This document shows positions 3,096-57,156 of a stretch of 64,000 bases of DNA, piece after piece; within the stretch, counting starts at the first letter, position 1; every line of letters starts with the position of its first letter. The notes under the pieces are model-generated. The model was not told where the DNA came from, did no database searches, and saw nothing but the letters and a program-made list of their open reading frames with translations. Made by a program: the position numbers and the translations under genes. The stretch covers positions 1,563,992-1,627,991 of the forward strand of contig OZ220494.1 of the NCBI GenBank assembly GCA_965116215.1, written 5' to 3'. The DNA is from Bdellovibrionales bacterium (GTDB taxonomy: Bacteria > Bdellovibrionota > Bdellovibrionia > Bdellovibrionales > JAKFYE01).

Positions 3096-4184
3096 CTAAA
3101 TCTCTAAAGCATCCTTTTTTGTAGATTCACTTAATGTCAATTCTAATTCTTTAGAGATAGCATTTAAAGTTTTAAGATCATAGGCCTCTTTACTCAAATC
3201 TGGTAGGGTTATCATCTTTATTCGAGACATTGATTTGCTATTTTTTAATATTTTTAAGCTGCTCTGATAGTAATTATTAAACTTTGAATAATATTTATAA
3301 AAGGGCTTCATCGGGCCCTCTTTATTTCCCTTCCAATGGGGTAAAGCTCTATTGATAATGATAACCGAAAGAGAGTACCCCTCTTTTTTTAGAGAAGACT
3401 GAAAATGGAGGGCCTCCTTGAGTCTCTGCCTTTCAAAACTCGTAATGAGGAAAAATGTGGTCTTTTGTGAGTTGAGTAATTTGTGGACCTCAAGACTGTG
3501 CTTTCTGATGGGGCCTACAAGCTCACTAATAGCTTGAAAAAAATCTGTCAGGTCATCAATAAATGTAGTGCTTGTGAGTTTCTTTAAAAGATCAAAAGCA
3601 GTAAAAACACCTTTATTCAACAAGAGGGATATTTTATTTCTTCTCTTGGACTTATAGGAAAACCACTTAATAATAGAAGATTGGAATAAGGCATTTATTT
3701 TCTTTGGGGCCCTTAAAAAGTCAATAGCATGTTGTGCCGGGGGTGTGTCTACAATGATTAAATCATAATTATGACTATAAAAAGACTGATGTAGTTTCTC
3801 TAAAGCTGTATACTCTTGTGAGTCGCTCAGTGTTGTAGATATCTTTTTGTAGATTTTATTTTGTAAAATTCTATCAGAAGATTCTTTGGATTTAGAAACT
3901 CTTTTAATAAATTCATCGAAAATATATTTGCTATTTAACATTGATGCATAAAGAACTCCCCCATTGTTTTTATAAGCTAAGGTATCATTTGGAAGAGACT
4001 GCTTTAGGTTGAGAGCATCTGCTAATCTGCGAGCAGGATCAATTGTAAGGACAAGGGCTTTTTTGCCTTGATTGGCAGCCAATATTCCTAATGCTGAGGC
4101 CAGTGTTGTTTTCCCAACACCCCCCGTTCCTGCACAAATAATAATAGAGTGTTTATCAATGATTTCTAAAAGTCTATTTGGCAT
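3096..4184 (-). CDS. ArsA/GET3-family P-loop ATPase (divergent switch motif)
   Basis: Walker A motif CAGTGGVGKTT and DTPPAQHAIDFLRAP in place of the DTAPTGHTLRLL signature. The likely start is the ATG at 4184 (MPNRLLEII), 11 nt inside the upstream gene. The longest ORF extends to 4223. Confidence 0.7.
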   Translation of the reverse strand: MPNRLLEIIDKHSIIICAGTGGVGKTTLASALGILAANQGKKALVLTIDPARRLADALNLKQSLPNDTLAYKNNGGVLYASMLNSKYIFDEFIKRVSKSKESSDRILQNKIYKKISTTLSDSQEYTALEKLHQSFYSHNYDLIIVDTPPAQHAIDFLRAPKKINALFQSSIIKWFSYKSKRRNKISLLLNKGVFTAFDLLKKLTSTTFIDDLTDFFQAISELVGPIRKHSLEVHKLLNSQKTTFFLITSFERQRLKEALHFQSSLKKEGYSLSVIIINRALPHWKGNKEGPMKPFYKYYSKFNNYYQSSLKILKNSKSMSRIKMITLPDLSKEAYDLKTLNAISKELELTLSESTKKDALEI

Positions 4185-25104: not shown

Positions 25105-25157
25105 TGACAATATTTTAGAAAAGTTGTCTAAAGAAATTTTGTTTTCTAAGATGACAA

Positions 25158-25220
25158 AGGAAGAGTTTTTCTTAAGGCTTCCAAAATCTCAGACAACTCT
25201 GAGGTTCGCAGCTCGTCTCC
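25158..25220 (-). repeat. Dispersed repeat module, copy of the element at 40702-40765 (inverted orientation)
   Basis: The reverse complement ggagacgagctgcgaacctcagagttgtctgagattttggaagccttaagaaaaactcttcct aligns to 40702-40765 with about 8 differences in 64 nt. Confidence 0.8.
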
Positions 25221-25300
25221 GCCAGAGCCTAAAATCTGGTTGGATAGGGCTCGATATATTCAGGGATAGAACAAACTGCATTTCTGCAGATATACCCTTC

Positions 25301-25440
25301 TGTAGGAAAAAGACTTTATTATCTTCCCCTTAAAGCTCAAGCAGCTTTGAAGGGCGCAAAGCGTCTCCTCTCTATGAAGAAGATACGCATTGCGCTTCAA
25401 AAAACTCGCTTTAAGAGAAAGATAAAAATCTTTTTCCCCA
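25301..25440 (-). repeat. ~140-bp palindromic (MITE/REP-like) element, copy A
   Basis: Terminal inverted repeats GGAAAAAGACTTTATTATCTTCCCCTTAAAGC ... GCTTTAAGAGAAAGATAAAAATCTTTTTCC. The reverse complement aligns along its whole length to 40425-40557. Confidence 0.8.
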
Positions 25441-25512
25441 TTATCCACAAACTTTAAAATACGCCATAAAAACTCTCCTTCCATCAACATTTTTTCAGGG
25501 GCATAAGTCATT

Positions 25513-37819: not shown

Positions 37820-38557
37820 TTACAAAGCTTCGTCGATAATATTTTTTAACTCATCTTCAAGTTTCTTAAGATCCTTAACAAATAAAGTGTGTTTTTTACT
37901 TAAAAGTTTTCTCAAGCGAGGTCCATTCTTATATGATGATATTATCCACTTTGCACTGTCTCTAAAGAACTTGACCGTGAAATCAAAAGTTTTCTCAAAT
38001 GCTTGCTGCAGCGGTAATTCAGCTTTAAGATTTAAACCCACATCTACTAGGAATATTCCCATAGCCATTGAATAAGCCCCTATACCAACCCCCTGAGCAA
38101 AAGCAGCCGCCCCTCCCCCTACAGCAGCACCTCCAGCAATCGATGGGTTTGTGATTAACGGGATTGTGAATAACGCTAATACTAAAATGGGAACACCTAT
38201 ACTCGTTAAGTTAGTTTTTATTAAAAATTTCTTTAGTGGTTTTATACCTATTGGATGGACCAACTTTTCGCAATCTTGACCTAGATAACACTTGTAAAGA
38301 TGAACTCTTTTTAAGGGTTGGTTGGAACTAGGGGGGACTGTGTAGTAAATGGTTTCAGTCCTAATCTCAAGCCATTCCGACTGAGAGAGTGGCTCAATTC
38401 CTTTTTGATAAATCCTAGTTATTTGCCAGTGTTTATACTGCAAATTGCTAATAGGCGGATGAGTTCCTTCTTGCGTCTGTTTAGTTGTTTGGGCCAAAGA
38501 GCCTGTAGAGAGTGTTAATCCCACAGCTAGAGTGAAAATGAATTTTAAAGGGTTCAT
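37820..38557 (-). CDS. Signal-peptide / Gly-Ala-rich (glycine-zipper-like) membrane protein, paralogue 1
   Basis: 245 aa. The signal peptide MNPLKFIFTLAVGLTLSTGSLAQ is nearly identical to that of the 39288-39893 product. It has a Cys pair (YKCYLGQDCEKLV), the segment AGGAAVGGGAAAFAQGVGIGAYSMAMGIF, and a conserved C-terminal RLRKLLSKKxxLFV. Confidence 0.7.
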   Translation of the reverse strand: MNPLKFIFTLAVGLTLSTGSLAQTTKQTQEGTHPPISNLQYKHWQITRIYQKGIEPLSQSEWLEIRTETIYYTVPPSSNQPLKRVHLYKCYLGQDCEKLVHPIGIKPLKKFLIKTNLTSIGVPILVLALFTIPLITNPSIAGGAAVGGGAAAFAQGVGIGAYSMAMGIFLVDVGLNLKAELPLQQAFEKTFDFTVKFFRDSAKWIISSYKNGPRLRKLLSKKHTLFVKDLKKLEDELKNIIDEAL

Positions 38558-38609
38558 AAAAATTCCTCCTGTTACAGGTTAGTCTTATATATATGCCCTA
38601 TGTTTAAGG

Positions 38610-38625
38610 AGCAAGTGCTGTGCTA
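38610..38625 (-). promoter_or_regulatory. Degenerate sigma-54-type promoter (TAGCACAGCACTTGCT; GG->AG at -24)
   Basis: Positional homologue of the consensus promoter at 39946-39961. The same -12 TTGCT is present but the -24 element reads TAGCAC. Confidence 0.45.
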
Positions 38626-38708
38626 GGTTATAGAGTTTGGTTTTTATTTGAAAAAAAAGGGGATTGTTTTTAAAAGGAGCCAACTTCTTGTTTAAAACAA
38701 AACAATGA

Positions 38709-38728
38709 GCAAACTTTATACAGTTTGC
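38709..38728. promoter_or_regulatory. Perfect 20-bp palindrome GCAAACT-TTATAC-AGTTTGC (candidate activator binding site)
   Basis: The 7-bp arms are exactly complementary. It lies 84 bp upstream of the -24 element of paralogue 1 and directly next to the (AAAAC)2 tract. Confidence 0.4.
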
Positions 38729-38856
38729 CAAGTTCTTTTACATTTTTTCATCATTTCAAAGAGTCTGTCTTTAGTTGTCAGGCTTTTAGATTTTATATGT
38801 CACAAATCCCTATATCAGCTCTTTAGAGCCAAGAGTTTTAAGATTTTGCCAGACAA

Positions 38857-39040
38857 GGGGAGGAAAGGGTTTTTGTCTTTGTCTTAAAGCGAGTTTTCCA
38901 AAGCGCAGGGGCGTATCTTCAAGGAGATACAGTTTATTTTCAACTTGAGTATATGAGCTTTAGTCTGGAGCGGAAAAGGATTTTTATCTTTCTTTTAAAG
39001 GGAGTTTTCCAAAGTATAGGGGTGTATTTGTAATTGAGAT
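38857..39040 (+). repeat. Two tandem direct half-copies of the palindromic-element left arm (copy B)
   Basis: ggaaagggtttttgtctttgtcttaaagcgagttttccaaagcgcaggggcgtatcttc and ggaaaaggatttttatctttcttttaaagggagttttccaaagtataggggtgtatttg. Both resemble 40430-40490. Confidence 0.7.
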
Positions 39041-39164
39041 AGCCACATTTTTGAAGGATTTTAAGTGAGAAGTAGAACATATCTGTGACTGTGAAGTTTC
39101 ATAACGCTTAAATCATGTCACTCTGTTTGCGCTTTTTCTTTTGGTAAAAGATCTTAATAAATAG

Positions 39165-39219
39165 TTATAAAAAACCGCTGACAGACACTCTTTGTGTTTT
39201 TGAGAGTCTTCAGCGGTTT
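39165..39219 (-). terminator. Rho-independent terminator of the 39288-39893 gene
   Basis: Inverted repeat AAACCGCTGA(cagacactc...gagagtct)TCAGCGGTTT, followed on the minus strand by TTTTTTATA. Confidence 0.75.
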
Positions 39220-39287
39220 GAAAGTCGTGTTTCAATGAGAGGTTTTGAGTTTTTTGCTCAAACCTTAATTCCCATTAGTGAGAAAAT

Positions 39288-39893
39288 TTATCGTACGTAG
39301 TTTCTGGGCTCCTCTCTTTTCAAAATTATCTTTTTAATAAGATATTCTAAGTTCTGCTCAAGCTGCTCAATATTGCGAACAAATAAGACATCCTTTTTAC
39401 TTAAAAGTTTTCTCAAACGAGAGCCTTCTGTTAAATTTCTAGTTAGATTATGTCCTCCTTTCTTCATTGTTGTTGCTCCTCCTATTAATGAAACTGCACC
39501 CGTGGCTCCTGCTGCTAACGTTGTTGATGGCACTAGGACGACTGCACCCACCATCACTCCTGCCCCGAAGAGCAAAGCTCCGACTCCGAATACGCCAGCT
39601 TTCAAGTTCTCCTGTTTTAACGTGTTTCTTAACTCATTTAAGGTCACCACTTCATCAACCAAGGGTTCACAACTCTCATTGTTATGACGCTCATCTCTAG
39701 TGCATGTATAGACCACAATGGCTGTGAGTTCTTCATTATTTACCTGTTCAGATGCTTTTCGGACCTCAATCCATTTGAGAAAAGAGGGGTCAGCATTTTT
39801 TTCTTTTATTGTGGTGGTTTTTTGAGCCAAAGAGCTGATAGAGAGTGTTAATCCCACAGCTAGAGTGAAAATGAATTTTAAATAGTGATTCAT
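39288..39893 (-). CDS. Signal-peptide / Gly-Ala-rich (glycine-zipper-like) membrane protein, paralogue 2
   Basis: 201 aa. It has signal peptide MNHYLKFIFTLAVGLTLSISSLAQ, a Cys pair (YTCTRDERHNNESCEPLV), the segment GVFGVGALLFGAGVMVGAVV...AAGATGAVSLIGGA, and C-terminal RLRKLLSKKDVLFV. A strong AGGAGG lies upstream of the ATG. Confidence 0.7.
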   Translation of the reverse strand: MNHYLKFIFTLAVGLTLSISSLAQKTTTIKEKNADPSFLKWIEVRKASEQVNNEELTAIVVYTCTRDERHNNESCEPLVDEVVTLNELRNTLKQENLKAGVFGVGALLFGAGVMVGAVVLVPSTTLAAGATGAVSLIGGATTMKKGGHNLTRNLTEGSRLRKLLSKKDVLFVRNIEQLEQNLEYLIKKIILKREEPRNYVR

Positions 39894-39945
39894 AAAAAGT
39901 TCCTCCTGTTATAGGTTAGTCCTATTGTATGTTCTATGTTTAAGG

Positions 39946-39961
39946 AGCAAGTGTTGTGCCA
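39946..39961 (-). promoter_or_regulatory. Consensus sigma-54 (RpoN) promoter TGGCAC-AACAC-TTGCT
   Basis: The minus-strand sequence TGGCACAACACTTGCT matches TGGCAC-N5-TTGCW at every specified position. Its -12 GC lies about 54 nt upstream of the ATG at 39893. Confidence 0.8.
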
Positions 39962-40034
39962 GGTTATAGAAATTGATTTTTTATTTGAAGAAAGGAAGAT
40001 TGTTTTTGCTCTTAAAAGGAGCTAACCTTTTGTT

Positions 40035-40269
40035 AAAACAAAACAAAACAAAACAAAACAAAACAAAACAAAACAAAACAAAACAAAACAAAACAAAACA
40101 AAACAAAACAAAACAAAACAAAACAAAACAAAACAAAACAAAACAAAACAAAACAAAACAAAACAAAACAAAACAAAACAAAACAAAACAAAACAAAACA
40201 AAACAAAACAAAACAAAACAAAACAAAACAAAACAAAACAAAACAAAACAAAACAAAACAAAACAAAAC
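40035..40269. repeat. Perfect pentanucleotide microsatellite (AAAAC)47, read as (GTTTT)47 on the gene strand
   Basis: 235 bp with no interruption, counted directly and consistent with the KQNKT-periodic ORF in the track. The homologous position at 38694-38703 has 2 units. Confidence 0.98.
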
Positions 40270-40274
40270 AATGA

Positions 40275-40294
40275 GCAAACTTTATACAGCTTGC
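40275..40294. promoter_or_regulatory. 20-bp near-palindrome GCAAACT-TTATAC-AGCTTGC (homologue of 38709-38728, one arm mismatch)
   Basis: Located immediately distal to the microsatellite, 314 bp upstream of the sigma-54 -24 element. Confidence 0.35.
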
Positions 40295-40424
40295 CAAATT
40301 GTTTTACAGTTTTCCATCATTTCAAAGAGTCTGCCTTTAATGGTCAGGCGTTTAGATTTTATATGTCACAAATCCCTATATCAGCTCTTTAGAGCCAAGA
40401 GTTTTTAGCTTTTACCAGACAATA

Positions 40425-40557
40425 GGGGAGGAAAGGATTTTGATCTTTCTATTAAAGCGAGTTTTTCAAAGCGCAGGGCGTATTTCGAAGAAAGACGAGC
40501 CTGCGGCCTTTGAAGCTGTTTGAGCTTGAAGGGGAAGATAAAAATCCTTTTCCTACA
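40425..40557 (+). repeat. ~135-bp palindromic (MITE/REP-like) element, copy C
   Basis: Arms GGAAAGGATTTTGATCTTTCTATTAAAGC ... GCTTGAAGGGGAAGATAAAAATCCTTTTCC. It aligns end to end with the reverse complement of 25301-25440. Confidence 0.8.
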
Positions 40558-40701
40558 GTGACTCATGCGTGAGAAAATCGCTTGTTCTATGCCCAATCAA
40601 ATCAAGCACTATTCAGTCAAGGCTTTTAAACTTTACCAAAGATAGCTTGTTTTATTCTAATGATATCAAGTTTTATCTAACTTCTATTTTTAGGTTTTTG
40701 T

Positions 40702-40765
40702 GGAGACGAGCTGCGGACCTCAGAGTTATTTGAGCTTTTGGAAGGTTTGAGAAAAAACTCTTCCT
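40702..40765 (+). repeat. Dispersed repeat module (related to the right half of the palindromic element), copy D
   Basis: ggagacgagctgcggacctcagagttatttgagcttttggaaggtttgagaaaaaactcttcct is about 87% identical to the reverse complement of 25158-25220. Confidence 0.8.
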
Positions 40766-40981
40766 AGTTATCCATCTTAACAAAGACCATAAAATCTCTG
40801 ATCGGATAATAAACTATCTATACCTTATAAAGAACTAGAGTCAGTTACACTCTATAGCAACCATAACTTAAACTGTGATGAACGAAGATAAGGGCTTTTC
40901 GAAGGGACTCTAATATAGTGATATTTTATACCTTGTTTCTTAAGAGAGTGAAAGATATAGAGGCTAATCGCTCTGGCATTG

Positions 40982-41941
40982 TTATATTTTACTTCGCTCC
41001 TTAAGACTTAAAGGATGGTGTTTTTCTAAGGTGGTGCGTAGAGAATCAAAATCTAAGTGCGTGTACTTTTCTGTTGTTTTCAATGAAGAGTGTCCAAGCA
41101 GATCCTGTATGGTACGTAGATCTGCTCCTCCACGCAGAAGATGGGTGGCGTAGCTATGCCTTAGGGCATGAGGAGAGAGGGGCCGCAAAAGTCCTGCTTG
41201 AGTGCCACAGGATCTGATAAGGGTATAGGCCTGTCGTTCAGAGAGTTTGGGGTTTAAAAGATATCCTGTTTTTTTATTAGAGGTTTTCAATTCTTCAGTG
41301 AGTATGGAAGGCAGACTAATATAGCGTTCTTTAGATCCCTTTCCTAATATGCGAAGTTTGGATTTCTCTAATATGACGTCTTTCCACTGTGAGTGACAGG
41401 CTTCGGAAACTCTTAGTCCACCGCCATAGAGAAGTAGAAAGAGCCGTCGTTTTCTAATCAAAATGTCCGACTTGGGCTGATCTTTAAACGCTTTTTTAAA
41501 ATAGTTCAAAACAGCTAACACTTCATCCAGGGAGAGGTATCGTGGGAGTTTTTCATCAACCTTTGGGAGAGTGATGGTGGTCGAGAGATCATGAACTAAA
41601 TGTCCTTCTTCAAACAAAAACCGCAAAAAACTTTTAAGGGTTGAAAATTTTCTCTGGCGTGTGGAAATAGCTAAATCTGACCAAATTTTCTTCCCCACAT
41701 CGATGAGCAGTTGACAGTTTAGATCTAAATTTTCCAATTTTTGGGACCTTTTATTTTTTTCAATATAATCGGCTAGTTGTAAAAAATCGGAAGAATAGGC
41801 CCGAAGAGTCTCAGGACTAAAGGACTTTAAATTCTCTAATGATTCCAACCAAATATCAAAATACTTGGACAGGAAAGGTTTTGGGGCTTTGTCAGAATTT
41901 CTCACTAAAATTTCCAAGATAATGCATTTTTTTACTTGCAT
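40982..41941 (-). CDS. Tyrosine site-specific recombinase, XerC/XerD family
   Basis: Catalytic signature GGGLRVSEA...HALRHSYATHLL...LLGHSSLKTTEKYTH, plus an N-terminal SAM-like domain (TLRAYSSDFLQLADYI). Confidence 0.88.
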   Translation of the reverse strand: MQVKKCIILEILVRNSDKAPKPFLSKYFDIWLESLENLKSFSPETLRAYSSDFLQLADYIEKNKRSQKLENLDLNCQLLIDVGKKIWSDLAISTRQRKFSTLKSFLRFLFEEGHLVHDLSTTITLPKVDEKLPRYLSLDEVLAVLNYFKKAFKDQPKSDILIRKRRLFLLLYGGGLRVSEACHSQWKDVILEKSKLRILGKGSKERYISLPSILTEELKTSNKKTGYLLNPKLSERQAYTLIRSCGTQAGLLRPLSPHALRHSYATHLLRGGADLRTIQDLLGHSSLKTTEKYTHLDFDSLRTTLEKHHPLSLKERSKI

Positions 41942-42080: not shown

Positions 42081-43157
42081 ATGTCAGAACGTGAAAGTTT
42101 TATACTCCCATCCAATAATCAGAGTTCCACATTTAGTCAAAAGGGGCAGGTCCGCAATAAAAATAAGGTGAATATCATCTATAAGTCTGAGGTGATTGAT
42201 CAGCTTTTGAAGATGATTGATCGTGTGGCCCAAAGCGATGCCAGCGTTCTCATTTTAGGAGAGTCGGGAACAGGTAAAGAACTTATAGCTAAGGCTCTTC
42301 ATGAGAAGAGCACACGAAAGTATAAACCTTTTGTGCCTATTAATTGTGGTGCTTTAAGGGAGTCGCTTTTAGAGAGTGAACTTTTTGGTCATGAAAGAGG
42401 TGCCTTTACAGGGGCCTATATGCGAAAAACAGGTTTAGCTGAAGTCGCTAATGGTGGAACATTATTTTTGGATGAAATAGGCGAACTCACTCCGGGTATT
42501 CAGGCTAAACTTTTGCGTTTTATTCAAGAGGGCGAGATTTATAGAGTGGGAGGAAAAGATCCTATCAAGGTGGATATTCGCTTGGTGAGTGCAACAAATA
42601 AAGATTTAGAATCAGAAGTTGTGCGAGGAATATTTAGGGAAGATCTTTTCTATAGAATTAATACTATTACTGCACAAGTTCCTGCTCTCAGGCGTCGAAA
42701 AGAAGATATTCCTTTACTTATCCAGCATTTCTTAACTTCAGGTTCTTATAGGTATCTCAATAGAGGACATCAGGTGAGCCCTGAAGCTATGGAGATTTTG
42801 CAGAAATATGATTGGCCGGGAAATATTCGTGAATTGCAAAACATTTGTGAACGCACACAAATATTGACAGAAGGTCACACTATTATGCCTGGAGACTTGC
42901 CTGATAGTATTAGACATCCGGATCAAAAGACTGTCATTGATGATTATGATCCGACTCTGACTCTTCATGAGCTAGAGAGACGTTATATCCTTAAGGCTTT
43001 AAGTTATTTTGAGGGTAATAAAACACGAGCGGCTCATGCTCTCGGTATTACGATCAAAACACTTTATAATAAGCTCCATGAATATGGTGAATTTGAAAAC
43101 TATGCTATTCATTCAAAACCCAAATCTTCCTCTATAAAGAAAACAGCATCAAATTAA
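42081..43157 (+). CDS. Sigma-54-dependent transcriptional activator lacking a receiver or sensor domain (AAA+ core + Fis-type HTH only)
   Basis: The AAA+ core begins about 35 aa from the N-terminus (GESGTGKELIAKALH; the sigma-54 contact loop ESELFGHERGAFTGA; WPGNIRELQN). The C-terminal HTH is NKTRAAHALGITIKTLYNKL. Confidence 0.88.
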   Translation: MSERESFILPSNNQSSTFSQKGQVRNKNKVNIIYKSEVIDQLLKMIDRVAQSDASVLILGESGTGKELIAKALHEKSTRKYKPFVPINCGALRESLLESELFGHERGAFTGAYMRKTGLAEVANGGTLFLDEIGELTPGIQAKLLRFIQEGEIYRVGGKDPIKVDIRLVSATNKDLESEVVRGIFREDLFYRINTITAQVPALRRRKEDIPLLIQHFLTSGSYRYLNRGHQVSPEAMEILQKYDWPGNIRELQNICERTQILTEGHTIMPGDLPDSIRHPDQKTVIDDYDPTLTLHELERRYILKALSYFEGNKTRAAHALGITIKTLYNKLHEYGEFENYAIHSKPKSSSIKKTASN

Positions 43158-43179: not shown

Positions 43180-44616
43180 ATGATTATGGGCTTATTATTC
43201 AGGGTAAGGGTTTTCTTACTTTTCATTGTTTGTTTTTCTTTTTCCTTATTATATGGGGCCGATGAAAAGGATTATAGAAATCTACGTCCATCTGTTGGGA
43301 TTGTTCAGTCCATTAAGGGTTATGGGACTGGTTTTTTTATAACAGAAAATTTATTTGTCACTGCCTACCATAATATTCAAGCTTCAGATAATGCGAGTAA
43401 TGAGCGATTGGGAAGAGATCCGTTGCGTGTCTATACTCTGGGGAAAAAGGATTATGGAAGAGTTCTAGTTGTTGATCCTCAAAATGATTTGGCGATTATT
43501 AAGATGCAAAGAAATGATTATAAGCCACTCAGTATAGGAAGTGATACAGATATTATTCGGGGTAAGGAAACTTTTACTATTGGTTATCCCCCCGATATTG
43601 CTTTGATCAATAGAGGAGAAAATGAAGCAGTTATAAGAGCTGTTGTGGCTCAGGGCTTTATTGGGATGAAGATGGGGAATGAAATCTTTGGTATTACAGC
43701 TTTTGCTTCAAAAGGGAGTAGTGGCTCCCCTGTTTTTTCAGAGGATTTGAAAGTCGTTGGGGTAGTTGTATTAATTACTCCAAAATCAATTTCAGGCTAT
43801 CAGACTTTTGTTACGCCGATCCATAAATTAAAGACTCTTATTGATAGAAATAAAGACCTTTTAGAAAGAGAGGGTGGAATGGGTTTTGGTCATATCTCTT
43901 CTGAGCCGTTGAAGAGGCGTGCTTTTGATGCCGATGTCAAAACAGCAGAGGATATGTTTATTTTGGGTTTAATATATAAAGAGGGTTTGAGACATAGACG
44001 GCCTAACTTTCAGAAAGCTCATTATTGGCATGAACGTGCAGCGAAGAGTGGATATAGAGATGCTGCTTTTTCCGTGGCCCAAATGTATTATACGGGCAAA
44101 GGGGTGAAAAAAGATTTTCAAAAGGCGTTTTACTGGTTTCAGGTGGCCGCAACTCATGGACATAGGGAGTCGCAATTTCATGTTGCACTTATGCACTATC
44201 GAGGGGAGGGAACAGCTCAGAACTTTTCAAAGGCCTTTGAAGGTTTTAAGAGCCTTGCAGAACAGAGGAAGTATAGAGGGGCATCAGCTCAGGTGGCGTT
44301 AATGTATTATGCGGGCAAAGGGGTAAAAAAAGATTTTCAAAAGGCATTTTACTGGTTTCAGGTGGCTGCAACCCATGGACATAGGGACTCTCAGTATAAT
44401 GTTGCACTTATGCACTATCGAGGGGAGGGAACAGCTCAGAACTTTTCAAAGGCCTTTGAAGGTTTTAAGAGCCTTGCAGAAAAGGGACATAAAATAGCGC
44501 AACATGATCTGTCTGTAATGTATGCTAGAGGAGAGGGAGTTTTAAAAAATCTTAAAAAAGCAACATATTGGTGGAAGAAGAGCAAAGGGGAAGAAGGTTC
44601 ACAGTGTTTTTATTAA
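43180..44616 (+). CDS. Secreted trypsin-like (S1) serine protease domain fused to C-terminal Sel1/SLR repeats
   Basis: Signal peptide. The catalytic triad context is VTAYHN, NDLAIIK and GSSGSPVF. There are at least 5 Sel1-type repeats (A..MY..G.GV.KD..KA..W...AA..G). The start lies 22 nt after the activator gene. Confidence 0.8.
   Translation: MIMGLLFRVRVFLLFIVCFSFSLLYGADEKDYRNLRPSVGIVQSIKGYGTGFFITENLFVTAYHNIQASDNASNERLGRDPLRVYTLGKKDYGRVLVVDPQNDLAIIKMQRNDYKPLSIGSDTDIIRGKETFTIGYPPDIALINRGENEAVIRAVVAQGFIGMKMGNEIFGITAFASKGSSGSPVFSEDLKVVGVVVLITPKSISGYQTFVTPIHKLKTLIDRNKDLLEREGGMGFGHISSEPLKRRAFDADVKTAEDMFILGLIYKEGLRHRRPNFQKAHYWHERAAKSGYRDAAFSVAQMYYTGKGVKKDFQKAFYWFQVAATHGHRESQFHVALMHYRGEGTAQNFSKAFEGFKSLAEQRKYRGASAQVALMYYAGKGVKKDFQKAFYWFQVAATHGHRDSQYNVALMHYRGEGTAQNFSKAFEGFKSLAEKGHKIAQHDLSVMYARGEGVLKNLKKATYWWKKSKGEEGSQCFY
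44083..44487 (+). repeat. Tandem 219-bp (73-aa, two Sel1 units) near-identical duplication inside the protease-Sel1 gene
   Basis: cgggcaaaggggt(g/a)aaaaaagattttcaaaaggc... recurs at 44093 and 44312. About 175 bp align with roughly 13 substitutions and no indels. Confidence 0.85.
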
Positions 44617-46719: not shown

Positions 46720-48135
46720 CTATTCATTGGCTGCTTCATCTCTTAAATCATCATCTGCTGAACCCAGTCCATACTTATCAACTCTGTATCTCATGGATCG
46801 AAATGTAATATTTAAAAGCTTAGCAGCCTTTTTTTTGACTCCCGAGCTTTTGTGGATCGCTTTAATCAATAACTCTTTTTCAATTTGTCCAATGATCTTT
46901 TCTAGATCAATTCCCTCATTTGTAATTTCAATTTCATGACTAGAGGCTATTTTTCGTCCAGATGATGTATTGACAAAAGGGGGTAGAGACTCAGGTAATA
47001 TCACAGAGCCACCCTCAAGAGCCACTGTCCTTTCAATAATATTTTCTAATTCACGGACATTTCCCGGATATTGATAAGACTTTAATGTACTCATGGCTTC
47101 ATCAGAGATGCCGCTAATACTCTTATTCAATCGCTCATTGTATTTTTTTAAAAAATGATGAGCTAAAGTAGGGATATCTACAGATCGATTTCTCAACGGA
47201 GGTGTTTTAATTAAAATCACATTCAATCTATAATAAAGATCTTCTCTAAATTGCCCTGAGCGAACCATTTCCTCTAAGTTTCTATTTGTAGCAGCTATAA
47301 TCCTCACATTTATTTTAATATCTTCTGTTGCTCCTATTCGGCGAATAGTTCTTTCTTGAATGGCTCTGAGCAGTTTCACTTGAATATTCAGTGGAAGCTC
47401 TCCAACTTCATCGAGAAAGAGTGTGCCGCTGTTAGCAACTTCAAAGAGACCTAACTTATCGGAAACTGCACCCGTGAAAGCTCCTTTTTTATGACCAAAC
47501 ATCTCTGACTCTATAAGATTTTCAGGAATAGCCCCACAGTTAACAGTTACAAAGGGGTTTTCTTTTAAGGGACCACTGTAATGAATAGCCTTGGCTACCA
47601 TTTCTTTGCCTGTTCCACTTTCTCCAATAATTAATACATTTGTGGGAGACTGAGAAACACGTTCAATGAGATCATAAATTTTATGCATTTCATCTGAATT
47701 ACCTACTAAATTTTTGAAGCTGTATTCTTTATTTAACTCCTTCTTTAAATTTCTGTTTTCAATTTCTAGATTTTTACTTCGGAGCGCATGTTTAATATTA
47801 ATTCTGACTTCATCAATTTTAAATGGTTTTGTGATATAGTCATAGGCTCCCATTTTCATGATTTCCACGGCGGACTCTGTAGTTCCAAATGCCGTAATGA
47901 TTATAAATAGCGTGTCAGGACAATTATTTTTTACGTATTCTAAGACTTCAGTTCCCGTTAGGTTAGGCATTTGCAAATCTGATATGATCAGATCAAAGGC
48001 TCTCTTTTTTATCATATCTATTGCCACTTGACCATCTTCAGCGAGGGTGACATCATAGCCTTCTTTTTTGAGCATGATATCTAAAAATTCTCTTATGGAT
48101 TCCTCATCATCAATAACAAGAATTCGTGGCTTCAC
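46720..48135 (-). CDS. pilR: Sigma-54-dependent response regulator, PilR-like (REC + AAA+ + HTH)
   Basis: Receiver domain (ILVIDDE...DLIISDLQMP), AAA+ core (GESGTGKEMVAKAIH, GAFTGA) and a Fis-type HTH. It lies directly downstream of a PilS-like kinase in the pil cluster. Confidence 0.85.
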   Translation of the reverse strand: MKPRILVIDDEESIREFLDIMLKKEGYDVTLAEDGQVAIDMIKKRAFDLIISDLQMPNLTGTEVLEYVKNNCPDTLFIIITAFGTTESAVEIMKMGAYDYITKPFKIDEVRINIKHALRSKNLEIENRNLKKELNKEYSFKNLVGNSDEMHKIYDLIERVSQSPTNVLIIGESGTGKEMVAKAIHYSGPLKENPFVTVNCGAIPENLIESEMFGHKKGAFTGAVSDKLGLFEVANSGTLFLDEVGELPLNIQVKLLRAIQERTIRRIGATEDIKINVRIIAATNRNLEEMVRSGQFREDLYYRLNVILIKTPPLRNRSVDIPTLAHHFLKKYNERLNKSISGISDEAMSTLKSYQYPGNVRELENIIERTVALEGGSVILPESLPPFVNTSSGRKIASSHEIEITNEGIDLEKIIGQIEKELLIKAIHKSSGVKKKAAKLLNITFRSMRYRVDKYGLGSADDDLRDEAANE

Positions 48136-51039: not shown

Positions 51040-52116
51040 TTAGAAACCAGCCTTTTTGATAAGACGGTCTAGTTCTTCTGGGTCAGGACTATGTTTAAAG
51101 GCTTCTTTAAGCTCTACTTTTCTCTTTAGAATCAAGTTGAGTAGAGATTGATTCATTGTTTGCATTCCTGTTTTGGCTTGTCCGACTTGCATGTTGCTAT
51201 ACACTTGATGCAATTTATCCTCTCTAATTAGATTTCGTATGGCCGGTGTCGGAACGAGCACTTCATAGGCCAGTTCAAGTCCTCCACTTTTTCCAGGTAA
51301 AAGTTGCTGAGAGATAATACCAACTAATATAAAGCTCATTTGTACTCGGACTCTATTTTGTTGCTCTGATGGGAAAACAGTAACAAGTCGACTTACCGTC
51401 TGAACAGCACTATTTGTATGTAGTGTTGTAAGGACAAGGTGACCTGTTTCTGCTAAGCGTAGGGCTTGCTCAATAGTTTCCAAGTCTCTGAGTTCTCCAA
51501 TGAGGCAGTAATTCGGATCTTGTCTTAAGAGGTGTTTCGTGGAATTTTGATAAGACCAGGTGTCAGGCCCTACTTCTCTTTGAGAGACAATGCTCTGTTT
51601 GTGGTGGTGAATATATTCTATAGGGTCTTCGATGGTAATGATATGACTTCTATGTTCTGCGTTGACCTTATCTATTAGAGATGCGAGTGTTGTCGATTTT
51701 CCTGACCCTGTTGGCCCTGTTACTAATATTAATCCATTGGGTGCATTTGTAAAATTTGCGACGGAAGAAGAAAGCCCTAATTGTTCAAAGTTAGGAATTT
51801 TATAGGGAACTCTACGAAAGGCACCTGACACCGCCCCTTTTTGATAGAATAGATTTCCTCTAAATCGTGCGGTCTGTTTCCATCCAAAACTGAAATCTAG
51901 CTCTTTTGTCTCTTCAAATCTTGCTTTTTGTTTATCTGTTAAAACAGAATAACAAAGACGTTTTGTATCTTCGCTTGTTAGCTTAGGGGCTTTTATTCTT
52001 AAGATCTGCCCCCCTATACGTACAATAGGTGCAGAACCTGTGACAATATGTAGATCTGTTGCATGCTCTTTATCAATAACAACTTTTAATATCTGTTGTA
52101 ATGTGAGGTTGATCAT
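51040..52116 (-). CDS. pilT: Twitching-motility retraction ATPase PilT
   Basis: Walker A GPTGSGKST, HIITIEDPIEY, RQDPNYCLIGELRD, and a His box (TGHLVLTTLHTNSA). Confidence 0.92.
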   Translation of the reverse strand: MINLTLQQILKVVIDKEHATDLHIVTGSAPIVRIGGQILRIKAPKLTSEDTKRLCYSVLTDKQKARFEETKELDFSFGWKQTARFRGNLFYQKGAVSGAFRRVPYKIPNFEQLGLSSSVANFTNAPNGLILVTGPTGSGKSTTLASLIDKVNAEHRSHIITIEDPIEYIHHHKQSIVSQREVGPDTWSYQNSTKHLLRQDPNYCLIGELRDLETIEQALRLAETGHLVLTTLHTNSAVQTVSRLVTVFPSEQQNRVRVQMSFILVGIISQQLLPGKSGGLELAYEVLVPTPAIRNLIREDKLHQVYSNMQVGQAKTGMQTMNQSLLNLILKRKVELKEAFKHSPDPEELDRLIKKAGF

Positions 52117-53849
52117 TTTAAGTCCTTAGTTGAGCTATTGATGACCTCACTTATTGTAATTTCGCCTTCTTTTAATTTTTTTAGAGCTGATTTTCTAAGT
52201 GTTTTCATTCCTGATTTGAGAGCACATCTTTTTAATTCCATGGGACTTACTCTTTGAAATACTAACTTTTTGAGTTTATCTGTGAATGTCATAACTTCAT
52301 AAATAGCCATTCTACCCTTAAAGCCCGTTCCATTACATTGATGACATCCTGTCCCTTTCATCACTTGAAATGTTCCAATTTCTTCTTTTGGTACTTCTAG
52401 ATCTATTAATACTTGAGGGTCCACTGAGATTGGGGTTTTACAGGAGTTACAAATTTTTCTCACAAGTCTTTGGGCCACAATAAGATTTATTGTCGATGTT
52501 ACAAGAAAAGGTTCTATACCCATATTTAATAATCTATTTACAGTTGAGGGTGCATCGTTTGTATGGAGAGTGCTCACTACAAGGTGACCTGTTAAGGCGG
52601 CCTTAAATGCAACTTCAGCCGTTTCCAGGTCGCGAATTTCACCCACCATTAGAATATCTGGATCTTGCCGTAGAAAGCTCCTTAATGCAGACGCAAAATT
52701 AAGGTCAATAGCAGAGTTCATTTGAACCTGATTAATGCCTTCTAGGTTGAATTCGACAGGATCTTCTGCGGTTGAAAGGTTCACATTGGGTTTATTAAGT
52801 TCTGCTAATGCAGAATAAATCGTTGTTGTTTTTCCTGACCCTGTGGGTCCTGTTATCAATACCATTCCATAAGGTTGATATATCCCATCTTGAAACGTAT
52901 CGAGTTGTTCTTGTGTAAATCCTAGACGAGTCATGTCTAATTGAAGAGTTGACTTATCTAATAGACGCATAACAACTTTTTCTCCAAATAACGTTGGGAG
53001 AACGCTGACACGAAAATCAATTTCCTGATTGTCTTTTAAAGTTATTTTTAATCGGCCGTCTTGAGGTCGTCGTCTTTCTGCAATATCCAACTTGCTCATA
53101 ACTTTTAAACGGCTAGTGACCGCACTGGCGATTTCGGAGCTGGGTTGGATTTTTTCATGTAATTGTCCATCAACACGAAACCGTATGCGGAATTTTTTTT
53201 CATAGGGCTCGATGTGAATATCTGATGCCTTGAGTTTAATGGCTTCACTTAACATGAGGTTGACAAACTTTATAATAGGCGGACTATTCTCTGATTTTTT
53301 TGTATCTATAGATGTAGATGTAGATGTAGATGTAGATGTAGATGTAGATGTAGATGTAGATGACATTTTTTCGACAAAAGTGTCTTTTTCTACTTCTGTT
53401 AATATCTCTTCATATCTTACTTCTGTTTGATAGTATCTTTCAATGGCACTTGTGATTTGAGCTTCTACAGAGAGAGCGATTTCAATTTTACAATGAGTGA
53501 GGAATGATAAATCATCTCGAACAGCTACATTAGATGGGTCAGCCATTGCTACAACAAGTGTATTAGAAGCTTTTGAAATGGGAATGAGTTTATTTTTTTC
53601 GCAGAAGTGGCGAGGGATAAGTTTGATAACCTCTGGGTCGATCTCAAAAGTTGATAGATTGATGGATGGAACAGAATATTGCTCAGACATAAATTCAATG
53701 AGCTGTTCTTCATTGACGTACCCTAGCTTTATAAGAGTTTCACCAAGACGCCCACCCATTGCCTTTTGTTCTTTGAGTGCTTGTTCTAATTGATGAATAT
53801 TAATAAAATTTTTGCGAACTAAGATTTCCCCAATATTTTTTGCACCCAT
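52113..53849 (-). CDS. pilB: Type IV pilus assembly ATPase PilB (GspE family) with an internal (Ser-Thr)8 linker
   Basis: N-terminal T2SSE_N/MshEN-like domain, Walker A GPTGSGKTT, LRQDPDILMVGEIRD, and a tetracysteine motif (CNSC...CHQCNGTG). Confidence 0.92.
   Translation of the reverse strand: MGAKNIGEILVRKNFINIHQLEQALKEQKAMGGRLGETLIKLGYVNEEQLIEFMSEQYSVPSINLSTFEIDPEVIKLIPRHFCEKNKLIPISKASNTLVVAMADPSNVAVRDDLSFLTHCKIEIALSVEAQITSAIERYYQTEVRYEEILTEVEKDTFVEKMSSTSTSTSTSTSTSTSTSIDTKKSENSPPIIKFVNLMLSEAIKLKASDIHIEPYEKKFRIRFRVDGQLHEKIQPSSEIASAVTSRLKVMSKLDIAERRRPQDGRLKITLKDNQEIDFRVSVLPTLFGEKVVMRLLDKSTLQLDMTRLGFTQEQLDTFQDGIYQPYGMVLITGPTGSGKTTTIYSALAELNKPNVNLSTAEDPVEFNLEGINQVQMNSAIDLNFASALRSFLRQDPDILMVGEIRDLETAEVAFKAALTGHLVVSTLHTNDAPSTVNRLLNMGIEPFLVTSTINLIVAQRLVRKICNSCKTPISVDPQVLIDLEVPKEEIGTFQVMKGTGCHQCNGTGFKGRMAIYEVMTFTDKLKKLVFQRVSPMELKRCALKSGMKTLRKSALKKLKEGEITISEVINSSTKDLK
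53311..53362. repeat. Hexanucleotide repeat (GATGTA)8, equal to (TCTACA)n on the coding strand and encoding (Ser-Thr)8 in PilB
   Basis: Eight perfect units counted directly. The repeat is in frame. Confidence 0.95.
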
Positions 53850-53870: not shown

Positions 53871-53886
53871 AGCCACTTTTGTGCCG
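53871..53886 (-). promoter_or_regulatory. Sigma-54-like promoter candidate upstream of pilB (CGGCAC-AAAAG-TGGCT)
   Basis: GG and GC are correctly spaced (GG-N10-GC), with 9 of 11 matches to TGGCAC-N5-TTGCT. It lies very close to the ATG, which implies a leader of only about 12 nt. Confidence 0.3.
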
Positions 53887-55117: not shown

Positions 55118-55858
55118 TTAAAATAAGTCTGTCTCATCGTCATCATCATCTGTGGAAAGGTTATCATAGTCATCATCTATGAAGTCATTTTCCAGATCCT
55201 CAAGATCATCATAGTCATTTGATTGTAGGTCATCATCTGTGTTTTCAAAATGTCTTTCATCCATATCATCGAATCTTGAAGATATTTCTTTATTATCCTC
55301 ACTTTTTATCGTTCTTGTTGTTTCAAGATTGGCCAGAGGGTTGGTTATTGAATGTTTGGGAGGGTTTTCGTCTTTTGTAATTTCGGCAAGGCTTCGGACT
55401 GTGGGTTTATTGAACTCTTTTCGGGAGGTGGGTTTTTTAGAAGATTGTTTTTTCCCAGTTGTTTTTTTCTTTGTCTTTTTTTGGGTTAAGGTTTTGGTTT
55501 TCTTCCGAGAGGCCCTTTTTTTAGAAGCTCGTTTTTTCCCGGTCGTTTTTTTCTTTGCCTTTTTTTGGGTTAAGGTTTTGGTTTTCTTCCGAGAGGCCCT
55601 TTTTTTAGAAGCTCGTTTTTTCCCGGTCGTTTTTTTCTTTGCCTTTTTTTTGTTTAAAGATTTGGCTTTCTTTCTGGAGGTGGTTTTCTTTGAAGTTCGT
55701 TTTTTCCCGGTTGTTTTTTTCTTTGCCTTTTTTTTGTTTAAAGATTTGGTTTTCTTCCGAGAGGCCCTTTTTTTAGAATATTGGTTTTTCCCAGTTGCTT
55801 TTTTCTTTGCTATTTGTTTTCGAGTCTTTTTACTTTTTATTCGTCTCTTCTTGGCCAT
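55118..55858 (-). CDS. Lysine-rich, histone H1-like repeat protein with strongly acidic C-terminal tail
   Basis: The N-terminal ~150 aa are almost entirely K/R/T/S/A/G in 28-aa repeats (KKAKKKTTGKKRASKKRASRKKTKTLTQ). The C-terminal ~90 aa are D/E-rich and end in DDDDDETDLF. Confidence 0.75.
   Translation of the reverse strand: MAKKRRIKSKKTRKQIAKKKATGKNQYSKKRASRKKTKSLNKKKAKKKTTGKKRTSKKTTSRKKAKSLNKKKAKKKTTGKKRASKKRASRKKTKTLTQKKAKKKTTGKKRASKKRASRKKTKTLTQKKTKKKTTGKKQSSKKPTSRKEFNKPTVRSLAEITKDENPPKHSITNPLANLETTRTIKSEDNKEISSRFDDMDERHFENTDDDLQSNDYDDLEDLENDFIDDDYDNLSTDDDDDETDLF
55440..55815. repeat. 84-bp tandem repeat (about 4.5 units) encoding the 28-aa basic repeat
   Basis: The landmark TTAA(G/A)G(G/A)TTT(T)GG recurs at 55486, 55570, 55654 and 55738 (period 84). 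Confidence 0.85.
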
Positions 55859-55971: not shown

Positions 55972-57156
55972 TCAGGGGATGATATTATCTAAGGTCCGTG
56001 CTATTGATGGGGGGAAAATCAGTGCGAGATAGACCCCTCCCGACACGCCGCCACTAGATGGGACAAGAGCAAAATAGCCAATGGTTTGTCGCTTAGATTT
56101 TGTGTGAATAGGAAATCTGAGCCCTACTGGCCAGGAATAGTCTTCAATGGGATAATAGATCGCAAAGGCCCCTTTTCCCAGATAAAGATGAATAGTTTCA
56201 TTACCTTTGCTCAAATGTATTCCTACGCTGGGGAGTTCTCCTCCAGGAATTCCAGGCAAGGGTTGGCCGTTGGGTAATCTTTTAATAATGCCCCCTGGTG
56301 GACCATGGAAGACATAGGGTAATGGCATATAAATTTCCATGGCGGGAGTACCGTTCCTGTGGGTAAAGGTACTATAGGCCCCTGGCATTCCAGGAATCGG
56401 AGTGTAGGGTGCGGTCCCTCCCAGTGGGGGGATGAGGGTGGGTGCGCTCAGTATAACCGCATTGTTGCGCCTATCTAGCCGTATAACCTCATGGTTATAA
56501 AAGGGACCTCTATTGAGCCTATAGCTCATATCTAGCTGATCTAGTGGGTGAGTCGTTGTATAGCGATTGGGTGGGTTGCTGTAGTTATAAGGTGATCCGT
56601 TGTATCTATTATAGTTGGTGTAGGGATTGGGAGTATTGCGAGCATTGCGATTGTAATAGAAGTTGTTGTCGTAGGGATTGGGTGGGTTGCTGTAGTTATA
56701 AGGTGAGTCGTTGTATCTATTATAGTTGGTGTAGGGATTGGGAGTATTGCGATTGTAATAGAAGTTGTTGTCGTAGGGATTGGGTGGGTTGCTGTAGTTA
56801 TAAGGTGAGTCGTTGTATCTATTATAGTTGGTGTAGGGATTGGGAGTATTGCGATTGTAATAGAAGTTGTTGTCGTAGGGATTGGGTGGGTTGCTGTAGT
56901 TATAAGGTGAGTCGTTGTATCTATTATAGTTGGTGTAGGGATTGGGAGTATTGCGATTGTAGTAGGAATAGTCCTCATTGTCGTTATCGTCATTGTTGTT
57001 GTAGCCTTGGTGATCGCAGTGAGTTAGGGTCAATAGGCAGAGGGGTAAAAAGAGACTGAGGATCAGCCTTTTTGGTGTTTTATTACGGAAAATCATAAGC
57101 CAGAACTTCTTCTGGGCTTCAGTCGATGAATGCAAAAGATCTGTTGCAGAAATCAT
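55972..57156 (-). CDS. Exported (possibly lipo-) protein with Asn/Tyr/Pro-rich 34-aa tandem repeats and a Gly/Pro-rich C-terminal domain
   Basis: Signal-like LILSLFLPLCLLTLTHC, then four copies of YYNRNTPNPYTNYNRYNDSPYNYSNPPNPYDNNF. An alternative start is the ATG at 57096 (MIFRNKTPKR). Confidence 0.7.
   Translation of the reverse strand: MISATDLLHSSTEAQKKFWLMIFRNKTPKRLILSLFLPLCLLTLTHCDHQGYNNNDDNDNEDYSYYNRNTPNPYTNYNRYNDSPYNYSNPPNPYDNNFYYNRNTPNPYTNYNRYNDSPYNYSNPPNPYDNNFYYNRNTPNPYTNYNRYNDSPYNYSNPPNPYDNNFYYNRNARNTPNPYTNYNRYNGSPYNYSNPPNRYTTTHPLDQLDMSYRLNRGPFYNHEVIRLDRRNNAVILSAPTLIPPLGGTAPYTPIPGMPGAYSTFTHRNGTPAMEIYMPLPYVFHGPPGGIIKRLPNGQPLPGIPGGELPSVGIHLSKGNETIHLYLGKGAFAIYYPIEDYSWPVGLRFPIHTKSKRQTIGYFALVPSSGGVSGGVYLALIFPPSIARTLDNIIP
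56559..56965. repeat. 102-bp tandem repeat: three copies identical by eye (56649-56954) plus one variant copy
   Basis: The unit gattgtaatagaagttgttgtcgtagggattgggtgggttgctgtagttataaggtgagtcgttgtatctattatagttggtgtagggattgggagtattgc starts at 56649, 56751 and 56853. Confidence 0.9.

Follow-up and report, generated by a model that had tools for sequence, protein, structure and literature searches.

The locus described here raises the question of why a perfect pentanucleotide microsatellite of 237 bp lies upstream of a predicted sigma-54 type promoter in a small bacterial genome, and whether the number of its repeat units could affect expression of the downstream gene. The locus is found in a 64-kb stretch of DNA (hereafter the window, meaning the whole stretch analyzed) from a bacterium of the phylum Bdellovibrionota, whose genome comprises 1.82 Mb (1,824,586 bp in a single contig) with a GC content of 37%. 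The raw sequence and Tandem Repeats Finder agreed on an uninterrupted (AAAAC)47.4 tract at 40035-40271; the program reported a period of 5, 47.4 copies, 100% matches, 0 indels and a score of 474. The perfect (AAAAC)47 tract of the initial annotation is thereby confirmed, with its end at 40271 and 47.4 units. On the strand of the downstream gene the tract reads (GTTTT)n. A regular-expression scan, which also detected it, showed that it is by far the largest perfect simple sequence repeat (SSR) of the window; the runner-up is (TAGATG)9 with 54 bp, and homopolymers do not exceed 9 nt. A tract of this length cannot have arisen by chance. The pure, long repeat that characterizes contingency loci is represented here by 47 perfect units, and the tract is a genuine, unusual microsatellite at a plausible regulatory position.

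The upstream region in which the tract lies is duplicated at 38484-38916, with identities of 70-98% by segment. The paralogous upstream region (38558-38916) was initially described as carrying the same repeat as (AAAAC)2, and this repeat is indeed found at 38694-38703. The palindrome of this region, at 38709-38728, is perfect, and its -24/-12 element, TAGCACAGCACTTGC at 38611-38625, is degenerate. The number of AAAAC units thus differs between the two paralogous loci from 2 to 47, in a comparison that covers 2 of the at least 9 loci in the source genome. Both flanks of the long tract match, base for base, the contiguous sequence around the paralog's (AAAAC)2. Given that both flanks are in register with these two units, the long tract can be regarded as the in-register expansion of a 2-unit seed, and the sequence suggests a genuine slipped-strand expansion of a pre-existing (AAAAC)2. 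A 23-mer flanking the tract had no match in a metagenome scan, and not even (AAAAC)4 was found in any of 82 related loci.

The promoter in question, TGGCACAACACTTGC, is located on the minus strand at 39947-39961, with its GG at 39960-39959 and its GC at 39948-39947. No other sequence in the window matches TGGCAC-N5-TTGC exactly; 0.05 matches are expected by chance, and 5 of 100 shuffled sequences yielded one. When up to 2 mismatches were allowed and the GG and GC were kept, it was one of two intergenic sites that are correctly oriented before genes. Its predicted transcription start lies near 39935, and 54 nt separate the promoter from the ATG at 39893; the Shine-Dalgarno sequence AGGAGGAA (39900-39907, minus strand) stands 6 nt before this ATG. 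No better sigma-70-type promoter was found in the interval between the tract and the gene. The assignment of the predicted -24/-12 core promoter to sigma-54 is likely. The gene for sigma-54 itself, rpoN, is not among the genes of the window. Between the promoter and the tract lies a spacer of 73 bp with 73% A+T (39962-40034). The consensus sigma-54 promoter placed by the initial annotation 73 bp from the tract is therefore borne out, and the distances of 73, 84 and 314 bp given there were all correct on recheck.

On the far side of the tract begins a conserved distal block (40272-40483) that is common to 38706-38916 and is 85-98% identical by segment; within it, 40351-40405 is identical over 55 nt between the copies. 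The block includes a 20-bp dyad, GCAAACTTTATACAGCTTGC, at 40275-40294, in a 7-6-7 arrangement with one mismatch. This dyad is either a candidate activator site or, in minus-strand RNA, the stem of a hairpin that is followed by (GUUUU)n. Its counterpart in the short-tract copy, at 38709-38728, matches GCAAACT-N6-AGTTTGC perfectly. The displacement of a 20-bp palindrome by the tract from 84 to 314 bp, as initially proposed, therefore stands, with the correction that the palindrome next to the long tract is imperfect. Measured from the dyad centre to the GG of the promoter, the distance is 95 bp in the short copy and 325 bp in the long copy, which places the dyad at about -120 and about -350, respectively, relative to the predicted start; upstream activator sites commonly lie around -120. 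At 10.5 bp per turn these distances correspond to 9.05 and 30.95 helical turns. Because the 325-bp value shifts from 30.95 to 31.86 turns at 10.2 bp per turn, the phase estimate was given no weight. Between the two copies, the dyad is 96% identical and the core promoter 92%, whereas the spacer between promoter and tract, the least conserved segment, is 70% identical.

These features lead us to propose, tentatively, that the tract acts as a hypermutable spacer within the DNA that loops between an upstream activator site and a sigma-54 promoter, and that it now weakens or uncouples activation by distance, to an extent that varies among cells. The TGGCACAACACTTGC promoter would be used by sigma-54 holoenzyme, and the dyad, or the conserved block behind it, would bind an activator that must loop to the promoter. 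A run of 47 perfect units should be highly prone to slippage, so that cells would differ in unit number, and each 5-bp step would alter the loop length and also shift the helical face of the upstream site by roughly half a turn. The downstream gene's activation might in this way be tuned or partly uncoupled in a heritable yet reversible manner. Speaking for this proposal are the purity and size of the tract, its in-register relation to the short paralog, the exact and correctly placed sigma-54 consensus, the dyad at about -120 in the short copy, the stronger conservation of the core promoter and the dyad relative to the spacer, the two activator genes nearby, the membership of the product in an expanded family with signal peptides, the well-conserved 5' cassette of the paralogs, the length difference of the same motif between two metagenome loci, and the nadA and vlhA precedents. 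The tract separates the core promoter from the conserved distal block, which is a putative functional element. At the present length the main effect is probably a weakening or uncoupling by distance, while a sharp on/off toggle is less likely. The bolder claim, that this is the first contingency locus to act through enhancer-promoter geometry at a sigma-54 promoter, with slippage stochastically retuning the transcription of one member of an expanded family, is doubtful.

If unit number does tune activation, simple-repeat phase variation would extend to the one bacterial promoter class that is strictly dependent on distant looping, and contingency loci would extend to the phylum Bdellovibrionota, in which, to our knowledge, none have been described. 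The tract would also provide, in vivo, a natural spacer-length series with which to study how distance and phase govern enhancer-dependent transcription. If unit number is without effect, the locus would still be a striking case of 5-bp microsatellite expansion in a compact bacterial genome, and the tract would also be useful as a high-resolution strain marker.

The proposed arrangement resembles several known systems in part. In Neisseria meningitidis, the TAAA tract of nadA changes how far apart distal promoter elements lie (Metruccio et al., 2009; PMC2791445), so the precedent from pathogens that the initial annotation named for expression-modulating tracts is borne out. As at the AAAAC locus, the nadA tract lies upstream of the core promoter between regulator sites, unit number sets their spacing, DNA looping is invoked and the product is exported; nadA differs in having a sigma-70 promoter, the repressor NadR plus IHF, and a 4-bp unit present in about 4-13 copies (PMC2791445). 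Moreover, phase variation and effects on expression have been measured for nadA, whereas the AAAAC locus has a predicted promoter of sigma-54 type, 47 units of 5 bp and no IHF site found. In the vlhA family of Mycoplasma gallisepticum, a (GAA)n tract upstream of the promoter alters the spacing of distal elements (PMC6258824). Like the family described here, vlhA is a multigene family of exported proteins whose paralogs have different numbers of units in a variable tract that lies within highly conserved flanks upstream of the promoter; unlike here, where one of two visible paralogs is expanded, every vlhA member has the tract, and expression goes with a count of exactly 12 units (PMC6258824). 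Organism, sigma factor and repeat unit all differ between the two systems. In the fim2 and fim3 promoters of Bordetella pertussis, poly-C tracts lie between the activator site and the core promoter, and their length sets the geometry between activator and polymerase. Deletion of one C from the fim3 promoter alters the phenotype (PMC10172299). The position of the fim2/fim3 tracts between activator site and core promoter is similar to that proposed here, but they are homopolymers of about 10-15 bp in sigma-70 promoters, with the activator adjacent to the polymerase and no long-range looping.

The classical enhancer-dependent promoters glnAp2 (with NtrC), nifH (with NifA) and pspA (with PspF) share with the present locus a GG-N10-GC core, a dyad near -120 (in the short copy), A/T-rich intervening DNA and a nearby activator gene. 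They differ in that the intact-core copy here has its upstream site about 350 bp away. We know of no hypermutable repeat in the loop DNA of glnAp2, nifH or pspA. A literature search of open-access papers found no simple-repeat tract coupled to a sigma-54 enhancer, in agreement with the statement in the initial annotation that no such case had been described.

A number of observations weigh against the proposed spacer function. The interpretation given in the initial annotation retains its anatomical basis, namely a strong core promoter, a dyad at about -120 in the paralog, its displacement to about -350 and two activator genes, and is weakened by the broken -24 element of the paralog, by relatives that lack the arrangement and by a hairpin reading of the dyad. 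The GG doublet of the -24 element is near-invariant in sigma-54 promoters. In the short-tract paralog, TAGCACAGCACTTGC has TAGCAC in place of TGGCAC, so that the GG is changed to AG. As a result, neither copy represents an intact promoter with its dyad at the canonical distance: the perfect dyad at the canonical distance is paired with the broken GG, and the copy with the intact core has the imperfect dyad at about -350. Furthermore, the 2 units in one of the two visible paralogs fall short of any threshold for slippage, so that the tract is not a family-wide device. NtrC-type activators work over hundreds to thousands of bp, which may make for a modest sensitivity to distance or phase at about 325 bp. 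No IHF consensus was found at up to 1 mismatch in the spacer of the long-tract copy. The family genes of four related genomes (L203-L206) lack a sigma-54 consensus, the dyad and the AAAAC tract upstream, from which it follows that the arrangement is specific to the expanded subfamily of the source genome. Finally, the host, as a member of the Bdellovibrionota, is no classical pathogen.

Equal weight, and hence an equally tentative standing, was given to the possibility that the tract is a neutral, runaway microsatellite, in which slippage expanded the repeat because 5-nt loops escape mismatch repair, the tract is tolerated in a fast-evolving, non-syntenic intergenic stretch, no adaptive role exists and the promoter was at most incidentally separated from its upstream site. 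The presence of the long tract in one of two visible paralogs is consistent with such an origin, as are the regulatory "lesions" in each copy (the broken GG in one, the displaced and imperfect dyad in the other), the position of the locus at a synteny breakpoint beside dispersed repeats, and the occurrence of a second long perfect SSR in the window, within pilB. Long intergenic arrays of 5-11-bp units without a proven role are known in non-pathogens, among them TAACTGA arrays with up to 43 copies (PMC4679880). In the survey of Mrazek et al. (2007), as summarised in the same paper, these arrays were set apart from the 1-4-bp tracts of host-adapted pathogens and were attributed to a general tendency toward expansion (PMC4679880). 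Like them, the AAAAC tract is very long, pure, intergenic, oriented to the downstream gene and located in a bacterium that is free-living or not a classical pathogen; they are usually multi-locus and often stand right before the start codon, whereas the AAAAC tract occurs at one locus in 64 kb and lies upstream of the promoter (PMC4679880).

The wider occurrence of the motif is also consistent with neutral expansion. A metagenome scan for (AAAAC)10 matched at least 120 contigs in assorted contexts. Among the matches listed, the longest tract had 28 units, and many were cut at contig ends or lay in probably eukaryotic DNA; on the gene-dense contigs among them, the tracts occupied assorted intergenic positions with no sigma-54 site nearby. 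Two metagenome contigs with identical flanks, L130 (6520-6609) and L136 (6538-6662), carry (GTTTT)18 and (GTTTT)14-TTTT-(GTTTT)10, respectively. They come from a low-GC organism or virus that is unrelated to the source genome, and the repeat lies between convergent genes, one for an exonuclease and one for a ribonucleotide reductase. Given their different lengths (18 versus about 25 units), the AAAAC/GTTTT motif is length-polymorphic in nature, at a locus unrelated to the one described here. Several features are nevertheless difficult to reconcile with purely neutral expansion. That all 47 units are perfect implies slippage that is still going on or was very recent, rather than an old relic, and the position of the tract exactly between two conserved elements of the promoter region is suggestive. 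In addition, no other intergenic SSR is present in the 64 kb and none was found in the 82 related loci, and the 47 units exceed the maximum of 28 among the matches listed from the metagenome contigs, many of which were cut at contig ends.

Less probable, and in our view rather unlikely, is a role as a terminator or insulator, in which the dyad would form an RNA hairpin and the tract would be its expanded U-rich tail, stopping either read-through from upstream or a short transcript that begins in the conserved block before it reaches a tightly silent sigma-54 promoter. The seed, TTGTTTTGTTTT, would then be the original U-tail, which would provide a neat origin for AAAAC. A consensus scan called the dyad plus the first repeat units terminator-like on the minus strand in both copies, a reading that competes on equal terms with that of an activator site. 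The minus-strand folds have free energies (dG) of -12.7 kcal/mol (z -3.3) and -15.3 kcal/mol (z -3.8, for 40305 to 40255), and the stem ends directly at (GUUUU)n. The sole substitution within the dyad gives a G.U wobble in minus-strand RNA and a C.A mismatch in plus-strand RNA. A same-strand, sigma-70-like sequence, CTGATA-17-TAAAAT, is found inside the identical stretch at 40351-40405. On the other hand, sigma-70-like sites occur in this region at the chance rate (10 found versus 9.4 expected), and the stem is weak and A/U-rich, with 8(+8) pairs of which 3 are G-C, while the tail, GUUUUGUUUU, is broken by a G at every fifth base. On this strand, no transcription unit ends shortly before the dyad: the closest genes upstream stop about 560 and 690 nt away, and a strong terminator of its own follows one of them. 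Termination calls for about 8 U residues, not 235 nt, and the comparison of stems covers two copies.

It is considerably less probable still that the tract is an artefact of assembly or polishing, being either spurious or wrong in length. Long-read consensus sequences are prone to errors in low-complexity repeats, the source is a single-contig assembly of 1.82 Mb, and many metagenome contigs among the matches listed break at such tracts. The in-register join to the paralog's (AAAAC)2 is, however, a signature of slippage that argues against misassembly, in which such a join on both flanks would be rare. The tract also lies in the interior of a megabase contig, and in the worst case the count would be wrong by a few units. 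That the tract is coding, as a (KQNKT)n or (FCFVL)n repeat protein, or that it precedes a real small open reading frame (ORF) starting at 40271, can be dismissed almost entirely. ORFs of 81-139 amino acids do cross the tract on both strands, and the distal end of the tract is the start of an ORF of 45 amino acids (60 in the paralog). However, the protein collection with the source genome's annotation includes none of ten candidate ORFs, a homologue search with the tract-spanning ORF gave no match, and no ribosome-binding site is present. Codon differences in the small ORF between the copies number 8 nonsynonymous and 0 synonymous, for which its coding reading was rejected.

The gene downstream of the tract (39288-39893, minus strand) encodes a protein of 201 amino acids that belongs to an uncharacterised family of the Bdellovibrionota. 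The gene is followed by a strong intrinsic terminator at 39164-39219 on the same strand (dG -23.1 kcal/mol, z -5.2, then a U-run). Hydropathy analysis and an AlphaFold model describe a protein that has a signal peptide and a Gly/Ala-rich hydrophobic segment, a beta-rich N-domain in which two Cys are conserved, and, at the C-terminus, a conserved strand and helix. The family had no match in Pfam, PHROG, PADLOC or PDB sequences and no significant PDB fold match, and a genome scan with the family alignment gave no match either. A word-based search identified 6 family members, all in the source genome, and an exhaustive profile search identified 16; by cluster look-up, at least 9 copies are present in the 1.82-Mb source genome and 1-2 in each relative. 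The members share the signal peptide, the beta-rich domain with two invariant Cys, the Gly/Ala-rich hydrophobic stretch and an LRK..S motif before the C-terminal helix; R45, C64, C75, L92, N96, G157, L160, R161, K162 and S165 are invariant. The family may consist of small exported or membrane proteins that were recently homogenised and expanded in this lineage.

The paralogous gene next to the short tract (37820-38557, minus strand) encodes a protein of 245 amino acids with about 29% identity to the 201-residue protein. The signal-peptide codons and upstream DNA of the two genes are 81-93% identical; over these codons, the leaders and the roughly 430 nt that lie upstream, identity is 70-98% by segment. 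The 5' cassette is far better conserved than the coding sequence, resembling known families of variable surface proteins, and this pattern points to gene conversion or strong constraint as what may have held the 5' cassettes of the paralogs at 37820-40483 alike. It should be noted that the family member of the closest relative (L203) is preceded by (TTGGT)4.4 at 3842-3863, 57 nt upstream of the likely GTG start. This repeat may be a coincidence, or it may be a hint of ancestral period-5 T/G-rich DNA upstream of the family.

Two genes for sigma-54 activators, each with a sigma-54 interaction domain and a Fis-type helix-turn-helix (HTH_8), are found within 8 kb of the tract promoter. The first, at 42081-43157 on the plus strand, encodes a protein assigned by Pfam and NCBIfam with an AAA+ core that contains GAFTGA in its translation, a lid and the HTH_8 domain; it has no receiver or sensor domain, and about 30 residues precede the AAA+ core. 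Located 2.1 kb from the promoter, it is a candidate for the cognate activator. It is conserved across about 35 Bdellovibrionota loci at 64-91% identity, where trypsin-Sel1 genes usually follow it, and its closest orthologue (91% identity) is from a metagenome-assembled genome labelled Bdellovibrionales; these orthologues assign the window to the Bdellovibrionota. The second, at 46720-48135 on the minus strand, encodes a response regulator of the NtrC/AtoC type (NCBIfam) and adjoins a histidine kinase gene and pilBTC. A link between dyad and activator was also sought through orthologous loci and found no support: in about 630 kb from 36 Bdellovibrionota loci, neither the dyad nor the exact sigma-54 consensus was found.

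Synteny with the two closest relatives extends rightwards from 40978, that is, from the gene for a XerC/XerD-like tyrosine recombinase (40982-41941, minus strand; Pfam), and the paralogs and the tract lie on the non-syntenic left. To the left of this boundary, the relatives (L003 and L002) have ankyrin-repeat genes and an unrelated gene for a protein of 268 amino acids instead of the paralogs and the tract. A noncoding, dispersed element about 300 nt long occurs at 40415-40800 and at 25130-25450, in opposite orientations and with 77% identity. Its 55-nt sub-repeat recurs at 38856-38910 and 38967-39021, and inverted arms are found at 40432-40458 and 40524-40550. This element may be similar to miniature inverted-repeat transposable elements or repetitive extragenic palindromic sequences and may mark points of rearrangement. 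An Rfam scan identified a tRNA and RNase P RNA in the window, both far from the tract, and nothing at the locus. A replication origin or terminus at the locus was considered and rejected, as the GC skew stays positive across the entire window and does not change sign.

The window also carries type IV pilus genes, a PilS/PilR-like pair and genes for Sel1-trypsin proteins. The occurrence of ankyrin and Sel1 repeat proteins in a small Bdellovibrionota genome hints at host association. The second of the two intergenic sigma-54-like sites, CGGCACAAAAGTGGC at 53872-53886, is weak, with 2 mismatches, and lies 23 nt upstream of pilB, beside the PilS/PilR-like pair. The (TAGATG)9 repeat at 53309-53362 is in frame within pilB (52113-53849, minus strand), where it encodes an (ST)9 linker at about residues 162-180, and its length could change without a break in the frame. 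Other tandem repeats within ORFs include 84 nt x4.5 (55433-55810) and 102 nt x3.2 (56561-56965), found in two unannotated minus-strand ORFs, and 219 nt x1.8 at 44082-44481, which represents Sel1 units in a gene for a trypsin-Sel1 protein.

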